Assembly: GCF_056746865.1 (NCBI RefSeq)
Contig: NZ_CM163382.1
Length of the DNA stretch: 64,000 nucleotides
Strand: one strand, 5' to 3'
Position numbers: made by a program. Of this stretch, positions 3,001 through 15,000 are shown in pieces (position 1 is the stretch's first letter; each line of letters starts with the position of its first letter).

Positions 3001-6000
3001 GATTGCATCAATATCGAAAGTGATAAGATCCTCTCACTAGCAGGGCATGACAAGTGTAACTGCTGATTTGTTAGCCTGTTTTAAGTTTTTTAAGATCAAT
3101 TATTTCTCATTTTTTGACTTTATTGCTAGCCGTGAAAATGCAAAGCCTATAGGATACAAAAATTACAATTTGTAGGTTTTGTGAGTCATATGAAGGCAAC
3201 CAATATAGACCCTCAACTGCTTGAAAAAGCCACGAGTATCTTTGCTGAGTTGGGCTTACCTATTGAGCAGGCTATTAACGTCTTTTTAGCTAAATCCGTT
3301 CAAGCCAAAGGTTTTCCGTTTTCTGTTGCTCTTGAAAATGAAGTAGAGACACGGGAAGTTGCACAAACGCAACACAATATCAGCAATGCAGAGATAACCG
3401 AAGCTATCCAAGACTTGGTTGAACATGCTCTACCACTGAGTGAAATAGAAAACCTCACGCAGCTAACCTATTGTCGCAACATTTTTGGGTTGTCATTCCC
3501 CGTGCTCAAACTGGCTAAATCATCACGGCCAGAAGACATTCGCAGTGCAGCCAAAGATGCCAAAGAGCGAAACCGCTACTCCACCACTAAAGTGGCCCAG
3601 CGAGATGAAAAAACCTATGTTATTTGCACCCAATGGACCGACAGACATCGTTCTGCATTTTGCCGTTGGCAAGCCATCTTTAGCTAGAACGCAAAATAAT
3701 AACCAAACAATACACTGATTTTTTAACGATTTAACTTCATTTAGGTAGTATCAATGAACTTACAAGACAAAGAACAAAGCGCCAAACTCTCCAGTGCTAT
3801 TTGGCGTATGGCAGATGATTTATGGGGTGATTTCAAACACACCGATTTTGCGCGGATTATCCTGCCATTTTTGCTACTGCGTCGTATTGAATGCGTGTTA
3901 GAACCCACCCGTGAGGAAGTTCGTAAGTTCTATCTGGCCGAAAAACAATCCGGCATAGACCTTGGTTTAGTGTTGCCAGAAATTGCGGGATTCGCCTTTT
4001 ACAACACCAGTGAATATAGCCTAGAAACCTTAGGCGCGTCAGACACCGGCGACAACCTAGAACACTACATCAGCCAGTTCAGCAAAAACGTTCGTACCAT
4101 CTTTGATGAGTTTAAATTTGGTCAAACCATAGAAGATCTGGAAAAAGCCAAGTTGCTGTATCGCATGGTAAACCATTTTGCCAACCTCGACTTGCATCCT
4201 GATGTAGTGTCTGACCGCGTATTATCAGATGCTTATGAAGAGCTGATTCTAAAGTTCGCCAGTTCGGTTAATGAAAAGGCCGGGGAATTTATGACCCCGC
4301 GTGATGCCGTGCGTCTTGCCACCAAACTGGTGCTGGCGGCGGATGAAGATATCTTTAGTGAAAAGGGTGTGATCCGCACCATCTATGACCCAACCTGTGG
4401 CACGGGCGGTTTCCTTTCCGATGCCATTAGCCAAATTGAAGAAATGGGCAGCAGCGCTAAAGTCGTGCCTTTTGGTCAAGAGCTCGACCCCGCGACCCAT
4501 GCCATGGCGCTGACCAATATGATGATCCGCGGTTTTGATGCCAATAACATCAAGCAAGGCAACACCTTATCAGACGATCAGTTACGTGCCGACAAGTTTC
4601 ACTACGGCCTTGCCAACCCGCCATTTGGCATTAAGTGGGAAAAAGCCAAGAAAGAAGTAGAACGTGAGCACAAACAGCTCAAATACGCCGGACGCTTTGG
4701 GCCAGGCCTGCCGAGTATTTCTGATGGTTCAATGCTGTTTTTACTGCACTTGGTATCAAAAATGGAAACGCCGGAAAATGGTGGTGGCCGAGTGGGTATA
4801 GTCCTTTCTGGCTCGCCACTGTTTAATGGCGATGCAGGCTCAGGCCCATCAGAAATCCGCCGTTGGCTGCTAGAACAAGACTTAGTCGAAGCGATTGTTG
4901 CCCTGCCAACCGATATGTTCTTCAACACCGGCATTGGCACCTACATCTGGATTTTGACTAACCATAAAGAGCCAAGACGCAAGAATCAGGTGCAACTGAT
5001 TAACTTGGCAGATATTTGGACTCCCATGCGTAAATCGCAAGGCGATAAGCGCAAGTACCTGAGTGATGAACAGATTGACGATATTGTCCGTGCGTACGAT
5101 GGCTTTGAAGCCAGTGACAACTGTAAGATCTTCCAGACTACTGATTTTGCCTACCGTAAAGTCACCATTCAGCGTCCACTGCGTGCCAAACTAGATATTA
5201 CCGCTGCGGGCATTGCTGCATTTGTGCAGCAAGATACGTTTAAAAAACTCAAACCAGAGCAACAAGCGGCATGGGTACAATACCTCACCGATAACCTTGG
5301 CCTTCAGCCTTATGAATGGGCACGTTTGGCGGTTAAGAAGAATAACAATAAGGGTGACTTTGGTAAGTGCTCAAAAGCACTGGCTACGGCCTTAACTGCG
5401 CACTTTGTAAAAATTGATCCGCAATTTGAGCCTGCACTGGATGAAAAAGGCCAAGTGATCGCCGACCCTAAACTCAAAGACACCGAAAGCATTCCTTTTG
5501 ACCGCGACGTTGAAGATTACTTCGCACAAGAGGTGCTGCCACATGTACCGGATGCCTTTATTGATCACTCAGTGCGTGATGAAAAAGACGGCGAAGTGGG
5601 CATTGTCGGTTATGAAATTAACTTTAACCGCTATTTCTACCAATACGTGCCACCACGCGAGTTGAGTGTGATTGATCGTGAGCTAAAAGCATGTGAAGCG
5701 CGCATTCAGGCTCTGCTGAATGAGGTGGCGTAATGAATGCTGGCAACATAGTAGATGCTTTCGTATCTGACTCGAAATGGAACTCAGTACCAGCTAAACG
5801 TTTATTTACGAGTAGCAAAGAAATCAATCAAGGAATGAAAGAATCTAATCGTCTTGCACTAACAATGAAAGGTGTCATAAACCGCTCGTTAGACGATTTA
5901 CAAGGACTTCAATCTTCTGATTACTCTGTTTATCAGATTTTTGAAAAAGATGACTTAGTTTTTAAGCTCATAGATCTTGAAAATATAAAGACTAGCCGAG

Positions 6001-12000: not shown

Positions 12001-15000
12001 TTACAACCAAAAACGGAACGGCCATTTTCCTTATTAGCCGAGAGCGCTACAAGAAGCCAGATGACATCGAAATATCATTGGCTTATCGAATCAATAATTA
12101 CACATTTATCGAGCGAGGATAATGATGGACCATGTACTGGCACATATAAAAACTAGAGCAAAAAAACGCATTTTCAAATTGGTTTCTGATCAATCTCTTT
12201 TTGATACCGTCACAATCGACTTAAATGCCTGTATTCCATACAATCCAGACCATAACCTTGACGAAGACTCATGGTTTAAAATTGAAGACTTTAGTCAAAA
12301 AGAGTTTTGTATTGAACTGCTAAAAAAAGACTATGATTCAAAAGACTACGATGACTTAACCAAAGATAACTTCGCCAAGATCGCCTACTTATTTGCAATT
12401 CAAGGTAATGATTTTTACTTTCAAAAAATCACTCCAAGCCTATTCGTAAAACGCAAAACGCTTGTTTTTGGTGAAGCCGCAGAAATTGAGAAGAGCCAAA
12501 CACGTTTAGTAATAAACGCCTTACCTGATGCAGTGTACTTCAAAGTGGCCGATACCTTGATATTCAAAAATCTGGCAACGATCTCGAGCATTTTTAAAGG
12601 TATCGATGAGTTGTACAAGGAAGCAACAAAAGAAGAAGTTGAGCAGTTTTTAGATGCACAGTTTATAGAGTTGGGTAATGACTACAACGTAGATAGCGTC
12701 TCAAAACCTAATAGAAAACGTATTGGCCTTGCTATGGCAACACTTGATGCGATGTCTGCTGACGATAAAGCTAACATGCTTGATTATATCGACGGTTACT
12801 GCGGTGAACAGAAGCTGAAATTCGATAAAGAAAATCAGAAGTTTGAAATATCTAATGACGATGAGTTGAAGTTACTGCTTTATGGCATTGAACAACGCTT
12901 CTATACGACCCCGTTTGGCAAAGAAAAAAGGCTCGCTAACTCTGTAACCGCTATGGATAAATAATAGCCCATTATCAGTAACATATGAAGGTTGATTCAA
13001 TGGCCGATAACATCCCACAAGCTCCTCAAGGTGAGTTTGTTCTTTTCACCAGTGCTGATGGTCAAACCCGCGTTGAGTGTCGTTTTGAGTCTGACACCTT
13101 GTGGCTTTCTCAGGCTGCAATGGCAGAGCTTTATCAAGTTAGCTCTCAAGCAATCACCCAACACGTAAAAGCTGTCTATTCTGAAGAAGAGCTTGAGCAA
13201 ATTTCAACTTGTAAGGATTACTTACAAGTTCAACTGGAAGGTGGCAGAGAAGTAAAGCGAAGCATTCGTCACTACAGTCTTCCGGTTATTCTTGCAGTAG
13301 GATACCGAGTTCGCTCAACACGTGGCACCCAGTTCCGCCAATGGGCAACCAGAATGTTGCAAGTGAACCGCCCCGGGTTTCCTGGAGAGTGTTTTATCTG
13401 TGAACTCAGGCTGCCAGATCATCGTTTCCGATGGAAGCATAATAAGCTTTTTCTGCTTCTGCCGGAGGAGTATGGCCCAGCCTTCCCAGCAATCGTCGAT
13501 TGTTATACCAGTCCACCCACGTTAGTGTGGCCAGTTCCACTTCTGCACGGTTTTTCCAGCTCTTACGGTGTATTACCTCCGCTTTGTAAAGACCATTGAT
13601 GCTCTCAGCCATCGCGTTGTCATACGAGTCGCCTGTACTCCCTGTTGATGCCAGTAATCCGGCTTCTTTTAGTCGCTCCGTATAGGCCAGTGACACATAC
13701 TGAGAGCCTTTATCGCTGTGATGGATGGTGCCAGACGGACGACGGGCCCACAACGCCTGCTCCAGCGCATCCAGCACGAATGTCGTTTCCATAGACGATG
13801 AGACCCGCCACCCCACGATGTATCCGGCAAACACATCAATGATAAACGCCACATAGACGAAGCCCTGCCATGTGCTGACGTAAGTAAAATCAGCCACCCA
13901 CAGCTGGTCAGGTCGTTCTGCCACGAACTGACGGTTTACGCGGTCGCCTGCGGCAACGGCTTTCCGGCTGATGGTCGTACGGACCTTTTTACCCCGGAGA
14001 ACACCGGCAAGTCCCATAACCGCCATGAGACGTGCCACTGTACATCTGGCCACCCTGATTCCTTCCCGTAACAACTGACGCCAGACTTTACGCACACCGT
14101 ACACCTGATGATTTTCATCGTATACGCGCTGTATCTCTCTCTTCAGCCAGTCGTCGTGCTGCGCACGGGCACTGCGTTTATCCGGATGATGTCGCTGTTG
14201 CTGACAATGGTAATACGTTGACGGGGCAATATGCAGTTCGCTGCATACCGGTCCGACCCCGTACTGCTCACGCAGCTTATCCAGCAGTGGCATCATTTTT
14301 TCCAGAGGCGGTCGAACTCCGCCTTCGCAAAATAAGCGGAAGCCTGGCGAAGGATATCGTTACTGCGGCGCAGTTCACGATTTTCACGTTCCAGCTCTTT
14401 CAGACGCTGACGTTCAGCGCTGGTGAGCCCACCATCACCGCCCCCGGTATCCCGCTCATGCTGGCGAACCCAGACACGCAGAGTCTCCGGCGTACAGCCA
14501 ATCTTTGGGGCAATGGAACAAATTGCCGCCCACTGTGAGTCATATTCATCCTGACTTTCCAGAACCATACGAATCGCCCGCTGACGGACTTCGGGGGAAA
14601 AACGAGTATTTTTAGTCATCCTGTTTACCTCTTTCTCAGGGAGTTTAGTCTCCAGGATTTCCGGGGCGGTTCAAAGAATACCTAATCAAAGGATTCGTCA
14701 TGGATGACGAGCGCCTGAAAAATCCGCCCATTGGCCATTCTGCTGTGCCAGATTACTTTGATGAAATGCTGGAACGCATTCGTGATATCCGAGCTAGTGA
14801 GCGTCGCGTTTATCTGCGAGTCAAAGAAATCTTTACCATGGCTGCTGATTACGAGCCATCTAACCAAGAGACCAACCGCTTCTTCCAAACCATTCAGAAT
14901 AAGCTGCATTATGCTTGTACGCATATGACGGCTGCTGAGCTTATCGCCAGCCGTGTGGATGCCAGTAAGCCGGATATGGGCTTAACCAGCTATAAAGGCG

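Follow-up and report, generated by a model that had tools for sequence, protein, structure and literature searches.

Accessory defence genes are already established in type I restriction-modification operons. In Vibrio cholerae, the VPI-2 type I operon comprises five genes, hsdR, hsdS and hsdM together with TgvAB, a two-gene accessory system that defends by a different mechanism, and one V. cholerae strain carries a natural hsdS::IS256 insertion in this operon, with methylation lost (10.1101/2024.04.04.588119). In the RRDM island of enteropathogenic Escherichia coli (EPEC), a small regulator gene stands upstream of the type I operon and a second defence module, DarTG2, is embedded between hsdS and hsdR, a junction that has been proposed as a hotspot for defence cargo (PMC12255303). 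Kiwa, known from E. coli O55:H7 RM12579 and from ECOR8, ECOR12 and ECOR49, pairs a four-segment membrane protein of about 185 amino acids (aa), KwaA, with a soluble protein of about 280 aa, KwaB (structures 9mrx, 9mtn, 9mrg and 9nyu). It is located on mobile islands, and in the published model KwaA senses phage-induced membrane changes while KwaB binds incoming DNA and blocks replication and late transcription (PMC11785009). Here we describe a locus in a 64,000-nucleotide (nt) stretch of contig NZ_CM163382.1 (assembly GCF_056746865.1; hereafter, the window) in which a type I operon runs directly into a Kiwa-like gene pair. We judge it likely that the region is a mobile, horizontally acquired, seven-gene anti-phage defence cassette on an E. 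coli island beside tRNA-Phe, and that two insertion sequence (IS) elements have left it with methylation but without restriction.

The seven genes lie in a conserved order: relB-like, hsdM, hsdS, hsdR, kwaA, kwaB and rhuM. The original prediction, made from the sequence, had described hsdM, hsdS, hsdR and two downstream genes as a five-gene overlapping operon. The ORF list, Pfam and PADLOC agree on these genes and their coordinates, and five plus-strand cistrons (3754-12964, hsdM through kwaB) are indeed linked by four one-base overlaps, at 5733, 7019, 11568 and 12122. Each junction reads TAATG, the last A of the stop codon serving as the first base of the next ATG. The five-gene extent proved too narrow, as the conserved cassette reaches from the relB-like gene through a rhuM gene that is itself split by an IS.

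Both methyltransferase genes are intact: hsdM (3754..5733, plus strand) encodes the 659-aa methyltransferase subunit and hsdS (5733..7019, plus strand) the 428-aa specificity subunit. The 5' part of hsdR (7019..9704, plus strand), comprising codons 1-895 plus one base and encoding the nuclease, the SF2 motor and domain 3, is followed by an IS629/IS1203 element of the IS3 family (copy 1; 9705..11014, minus strand, 1310 bp) and then by the 3' remnant of hsdR (11018..11568, plus strand), which holds the last 182 codons plus the stop and appears as an ORF of 183 aa at 11017-11568. The stop codon of hsdR overlaps the start of the kwaA-like membrane protein gene (11568..12122, plus strand, 184 aa), which overlaps in turn the kwaB-like gene (12122..12964, plus strand, 280 aa).

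These last two genes had been labelled simply as encoding a membrane and a soluble protein. That description and order hold; the anonymity does not, as PADLOC profiles match both proteins and the predicted folds point in the same direction, namely to a divergent Kiwa. The 184-aa protein matches the PADLOC KwaA profile (9.3e-16, residues 2-182) and contains four hydrophobic segments (residues 4-30, 42-69, 92-106 and 110-138). In its AlphaFold2 (AF2) model, four long helices are accompanied by a beta domain at the C terminus, and the best two fold matches in the PDB, albeit weak, are KwaA chains (9mrg_B and 9mrx_A; E-values 0.03 and 0.075, template modelling (TM) scores 0.36 and 0.32). A weak precomputed match to Pfam PF28043 (KwaA) exists on homologues of this protein; the Pfam scan of the window protein gave no significant match.

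The 280-aa protein matches the PADLOC KwaB profile (7.1e-14, residues 33-276); its family comprises 534 clusters at 50% identity. An AF2 model built on a 62-sequence family alignment reached a predicted local distance difference test (pLDDT) score of 91.3 and a predicted TM score of 0.75. When this model was compared with the PDB using Foldseek, the top six matches were KwaB chains (9mtn, 9mrx_D and 9nyu) with E-values of 5e-7 to 5e-6, probability 1.0, TM scores of 0.57-0.64 and 11% identity. KwaB structures were the only significant matches, the next PDB entry having an E-value of 0.3. The Pfam KwaB family (PF16162, DUF4868) is reached by 3 of the 62 family members at E ≤ 0.001. Together, profiles and modelled folds assign the pair to a divergent, Kiwa-like clade, and the locus thereby gives a name to two widespread proteins that databases list as 'hypothetical protein' or under the erroneous name 'ATP F0F1 synthase synthase'. 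The latter misnomer is widespread among KwaB-like entries from Vibrio, Shewanella, Aeromonas, Proteus and E. coli.

Unlike Kiwa as described, the pair in the window is not free-standing: the kwaA start overlaps the stop of hsdR here, and that of hsdS in many other species. We profiled this coupling in a census of 80 species-representative loci, which were retrieved with a KwaA-like alignment and whose neighbouring genes were labelled by NCBIfam matches and home-made profiles. KwaA-like proteins share 75-98% aa identity across Vibrio, Shewanella, Legionella, Halomonas and others, and kwaA and kwaB are adjacent in 80/80 loci, with gaps of -29 to +2 nt. The end of hsdS lies -17 to +3 nt from the kwaA start in 27 loci, mostly in the order R-M-S-kwaA-kwaB and in two cases as M-S-kwaA-kwaB-R. 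At a further set of loci the gene upstream is hsdR, within 5 nt of kwaA in 4, at 36-141 nt in 7 and at about 745 nt in 2; the remaining 40 have another gene, or the contig end, upstream of kwaA. Thus, in 31 of the 80 species genomes, kwaA either overlaps hsdS or hsdR or is no more than 5 nt away from one of them, and a co-oriented type I gene ends no more than 150 nt upstream in 38.

Coupling this tight would also be expected if the membrane and soluble proteins were dedicated accessory subunits of the type I enzyme, a tether or regulator without function in the absence of HsdMSR, and both the one-base overlap with hsdR in the window and the 31/80 and 38/80 counts fit such a role. The conserved pair, however, is found behind type I families that are unrelated to one another and differ in gene order, and also behind modules that are not type I at all, namely a PLD-helicase-DUF3427 gene or a C5 methylase accompanied by a DUF2357/PDDEXK gene; other restriction modules precede it in Vibrio and marine contigs. 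In Legionella and Halomonas, kwaAB has no adjoining co-oriented type I operon. The folds and profiles, moreover, indicate KwaA and KwaB, which are active alone in published tests (PMC11785009). We therefore regard an accessory-subunit role as very improbable. The neighbourhoods instead indicate that kwaAB is a module in its own right, one very frequently fused into type I operons, and this speaks against its being a mere restriction-enzyme subunit.

Time and again this clade is attached at the 3' end of a type I operon or inserted within it, and DarTG, RhuM or a reverse-transcriptase-like gene often comes next. At one locus, a type I hsdR-hsdM-hsdS operon runs with a 4-nt overlap into kwaAB, which is followed by DarT-DarG. 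More broadly, a third module lies within a few nt of kwaAB in several other taxa (census loci L002-L013, L031, L037, L038, L058 and L076), where it is DarT-DarG, RhuM or a protein that is about 1070 aa long and weakly matches reverse transcriptases (retron/Drt3a-like); the overall layout in these taxa is restriction module, kwaAB, third module.

A specialised partnership with type I systems, going beyond shared residence on islands, is a reading that we hold to be rather unlikely. The start codon of the pair is translationally coupled to hsdS or hsdR in about 40% of the species genomes, the type I families concerned being unrelated and their gene orders at least three in number; selection for a functional link of this kind would fit such a pattern. 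KwaAB might then capture incoming DNA at the membrane, buying time for the slow, translocating type I enzyme, or might serve as a back-up once DNA-mimic anti-restriction proteins have disabled HsdMSR. If so, the window would represent a natural uncoupled mutant, with methylation on, restriction off and Kiwa separated from its promoter. In either case the locus provides a testable instance in which to ask whether defence systems fused at the operon level only share their regulation or truly cooperate in mechanism. Type I systems go unmentioned in the Kiwa paper (PMC11785009), and the literature searched, of which coverage was incomplete, contained no account of a coupling between Kiwa and hsd genes; likewise, the papers searched held no experimental report on protection against phage or conjugation by the clade found in the window. 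The inactivation of hsdR by an IS is ordinary; the mildly novel element is the tight coupling, seen recurrently, between a divergent Kiwa clade and type I operons.

The seven-gene cassette is also found in Vibrio, at loci L025 and L026, where the junctions measure -4, -1, -1 and -1 nt. Nucleotide identity to the window cassette is about 89-90%, and the relB-like protein is 88% identical at the aa level. The exception is the target-recognition domains of hsdS, where only the central ~200 nt align. This pattern suggests a fairly recent transfer of the cassette between genera, together with a specificity swap.

We next turn to the insertions. As the original prediction had it, IS629 splits hsdR at 9705. 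Copy 1 has the size and organisation of IS629/IS1203, a two-ORF element of 1310 bp: its ends are 25-nt imperfect terminal inverted repeats, 88% complementary (TGAACCGCCCC...GGGGCGGTTCA), with TG...CA termini, and its overlapping orfA (10634-10960, 108 aa) and orfB (9747-10637, 296 aa) both lie on the minus strand, opposite to the operon. A 3-bp direct duplication of the target, ATA, flanks it at 9702-9704 and 11015-11017, so that all of the IS3-family features of IS629/IS1203 (size, overlapping ORFs, terminal inverted repeats and 3-bp duplication) are present, with nothing unusual relative to other cases of inactivation by this element in E. coli. RefSeq names the matching elements 'IS3-like element IS1203 family transposase'; we take IS629 and IS1203 to be isoforms of one element. 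Excision of copy 1 plus one ATA restores a continuous hsdR ORF of 3237 nt (1078 aa).

Copy 2, of the same sequence as copy 1, interrupts rhuM at 13364..14673 on the minus strand and is flanked by an AAG duplication (13361-13363 and 14674-14676). Rejoining the 5' part of rhuM (13000..13363, plus strand) with the 3' part (14677..15347, plus strand) gives an uninterrupted RhuM ORF, the product of which matches the PADLOC defence candidate PDC-S05 at 8e-167. The cassette has thus taken two independent IS629 insertions, one in hsdR and one in rhuM.

The intact counterpart exists in E. coli 98232 (NZ_CP173446), which is 100% identical to window positions 1-9706, 11015-13363 and 14674-15683. There the annotation lists, in order, a RelB/DinJ antitoxin, a class I SAM-dependent DNA methyltransferase, subunit S, subunit R (3237 nt), two hypothetical proteins and a virulence RhuM family protein. 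To assess occurrence, an 800-nt probe spanning the rejoined hsdR junction was compared with 5,426 complete E. coli genomes. The intact junction was present in 76, each time as one uninterrupted piece, and in these 76 the coverage of the 10.3-kb region is 80% or more. The existence of an IS-free allele of 100% identity elsewhere implies that the window holds a known cassette plus two true transposition events.

The split allele itself occurs in none of the 5,426 complete genomes, and the exact 973-aa truncated HsdR product is absent from the protein index. Both facts, along with the presence of three near-identical IS copies within 10.3 kb, would be compatible with repeat-induced misjoins in hsdR and rhuM, the true genome having an intact cassette. 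We find such misassembly barely credible: the exact IS ends, the perfect ATA and AAG duplications and the exact restoration of both reading frames upon excision constitute the signature of transposition.

Transposition into hsdR left the modification genes untouched, since hsdM, hsdS and the DNA upstream of them are base-for-base equal to the uninterrupted 98232 allele, in keeping with the earlier claim that HsdM and HsdS are intact. HsdM contains the Pfam domains HsdM_N (4.8e-22) and N6_Mtase (1.3e-57) and aligns end to end with the PADLOC MTase_I profile PDLC03029 (1.9e-243, positions 3-659 of 661). The same comparison removes the suggestion that, at 659 aa, HsdM is unusually long: its length is normal for its subfamily. 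HsdS matches PADLOC Specificity_I over residues 14-427 of 428 (4e-97). The rejoined HsdR protein contains HSDR_N (residues 60-220), SWI2_SNF2/ResIII (296-564; SWI2_SNF2 299-564) and a T1R_D3-like domain (608-748), as well as GSGKT and DEAH motifs. A complete HsdR, with nuclease, motor, domain 3 and C-terminal region, is found in the 76 IS-free alleles and not in the window. HsdM, like HsdR (see below), scores under the curated NCBIfam cut-off (TIGR00497 hsdM, 101 bits versus 243), and the system is a divergent type I subfamily. As a separate observation, residues 995-1073 of the HsdR tail (window ~11311-11550) match PADLOC PDC-S15 (9e-6, profile positions 299-377 of 380), which may reflect a shared C-terminal module.

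The IS lies at codon 896, within the C-terminal region of about 330 residues. The hsdR ORF continues into the element (7019-9940, 973 aa in the ORF list), giving a product of 896 native residues, as the IS end recreates the Met codon, followed by 77 IS-encoded residues. The earlier estimate of a cut after about 895 codons with 184 left over was thus right as to truncation and slightly off in its counts, 896 native residues being kept and the remnant amounting to 183 aa plus the stop. In EcoR124I, the C-terminal helical domain of HsdR has been proposed as the part that contacts the methyltransferase, and translocation, ATPase activity and cleavage depend on it (PMC5248579). With hsdM, hsdS and the upstream DNA unchanged while the IS truncates the C-terminal region of HsdR, a modification-positive, restriction-negative state is the most likely outcome that we infer for the locus. 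The V. cholerae VPI-2 strain differs in this respect: its IS is in hsdS, whereas here it is in hsdR, so that methylation should survive.

In its intact form, the cassette would be read as a single transcript from upstream of hsdM, covering all five TAATG-joined cistrons. By analogy with characterised systems, two HsdM subunits and one HsdS would form a methyltransferase that marks host DNA, and HsdR would join it to translocate along and cut unmodified DNA. The membrane protein KwaA would sense phage attachment, upon which KwaB would bind the incoming DNA and block replication and late transcription, again by analogy. The insertion after codon 896 deprives HsdR of the final 182 residues of its C-terminal helical region, the region that contacts the methyltransferase in other type I enzymes, and puts 1.3 kb of oppositely oriented IS between the predicted hsd promoter and kwaAB. 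The predicted state of the locus is one in which methylation is kept, restriction and RhuM are lost, and kwaAB is intact but promoter-less. For the source strain, this would mean that a methyltransferase is probably all that is left of a seemingly complete defence island, with consequences for predictions of phage susceptibility and DNA uptake.

The expression of kwaAB was evaluated from the DNA between the IS and the pair. A terminator-like hairpin lies at 9714-9726, at the entry end of the IS, and a consensus scan of the plus strand from the IS to kwaA found no promoter-like site of at least 9/12. The original prediction had raised an outward promoter in the IS629 end as a possible source of transcription; the scan yielded only two weak, overlapping 8/12 matches between the IS and kwaA (11235-11264). 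The remnant ORF of hsdR starts at the native Met896 codon, 2 nt past the end of the IS, and no clear Shine-Dalgarno sequence was seen before it. Given the opposed IS, the hairpin at its entry and the lack of a downstream promoter-like site of at least 9/12, kwaAB is probably silent or weakly expressed.

Some of the same features could be read in favour of a locus that is largely functional, in which the truncated HsdR restricts, alone or with the 183-aa fragment, and read-through, or a promoter in the end of the IS or in the remnant, sustains kwaAB transcription. The nuclease and motor domains are encoded upstream of the insertion, the remnant ORF keeps its native Met896 start and its TAATG coupling to kwaA, and the paired 8/12 matches could act as a promoter. 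Set against this are the opposite orientation of the IS, the hairpin at its entry end, the lack of a good Shine-Dalgarno sequence before the remnant and the lack of any promoter-like site of at least 9/12. A largely functional locus is, in our estimate, quite improbable.

We favour the cassette reading, with restriction lost and kwaAB uncoupled, yet several observations weigh against it. The truncated HsdR does retain its nuclease and motor domains, and a consensus scan could miss a weak internal or IS-derived promoter for kwaAB. HsdR scores 166 bits against NCBIfam TIGR00348 hsdR, below the cut-off of about 284-285, and matches EcoR124I HsdR, the closest solved HsdR, only at an E-value of 2e-4. 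For KwaA, the NCBIfam profile gives 25 bits against a cut-off of 100, and the AF2 model has a moderate pLDDT of 70. The Pfam scan of the 280-aa window protein gave no match to KwaB PF16162, and at about 11% identity to solved KwaB, the Kiwa call rests on profile and fold similarity. The 62-sequence KwaB-like profile found no KwaB in the PDB, and phmmer searches with the 184-aa and 280-aa proteins found neither KwaA nor KwaB there; as these sequence searches of the PDB failed, it was the fold search alone that tied the pair to solved Kiwa structures.

At its upstream end, the cassette resembles the EPEC RRDM island in having a small gene ahead of the type I operon and a second defence module within the unit. 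This first gene (3190..3687, plus strand; 165 aa from the RefSeq ATG) encodes a RelB/DinJ-like ribbon-helix-helix protein: NCBIfam RelB_DinJ matches residues 7-78 (1.7e-10), and the C-terminal half has no domain assignment. The ORF ends 66 nt upstream of hsdM with no adjoining toxin gene, and its product may be a regulator of the operon rather than an antitoxin. An identity with RptR was considered and rejected, RptR being a 79-aa helix-turn-helix protein. The two islands thus differ in regulator, RptR in EPEC and RelB/DinJ-like here, and in cargo, DarTG2 there and Kiwa-like plus RhuM here; they are linked by the loci in other taxa in which the Kiwa clade directly precedes DarT-DarG. The VPI-2 operon differs from the present one in the nature and position of its accessory genes, since TgvAB is a GmrSD-like type IV restriction system lying between the hsd genes, whereas the Kiwa-like pair follows hsdR.

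The cassette lies on an island, of which the tRNA-Phe gene at 40671-40746 forms the edge. Beyond it, several E. coli chromosomes match the backbone at 41000-64000 (frd, groEL, aspA and dsbD) with 100% identity. The island parts at 1-3100 and 20000-40800 include an IS1 copy and a cytochrome b562 gene, as judged by alignment to the annotated 98232 locus, and a stretch of 29% G+C lies at 1501-2000. The island also carries carbohydrate-utilisation genes (alpha-galactosidase, GH32 hydrolase and porin) with 99.6% identity to other E. coli islands, and their order relative to the hsd cassette is not as in strain 98232. A third IS629 copy, at 18679-19987, is 1309 bp long and has two substitutions; one T is missing from the T/A run where orfA meets orfB, the frameshift site, and the flanks of this copy, GTT and AAT, show no matching target duplication. 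Possibly the element is defective, and it could be the trace of an IS-mediated rearrangement. Strain 98232 instead has an IS copy immediately after the sequence equivalent to window position 15683.

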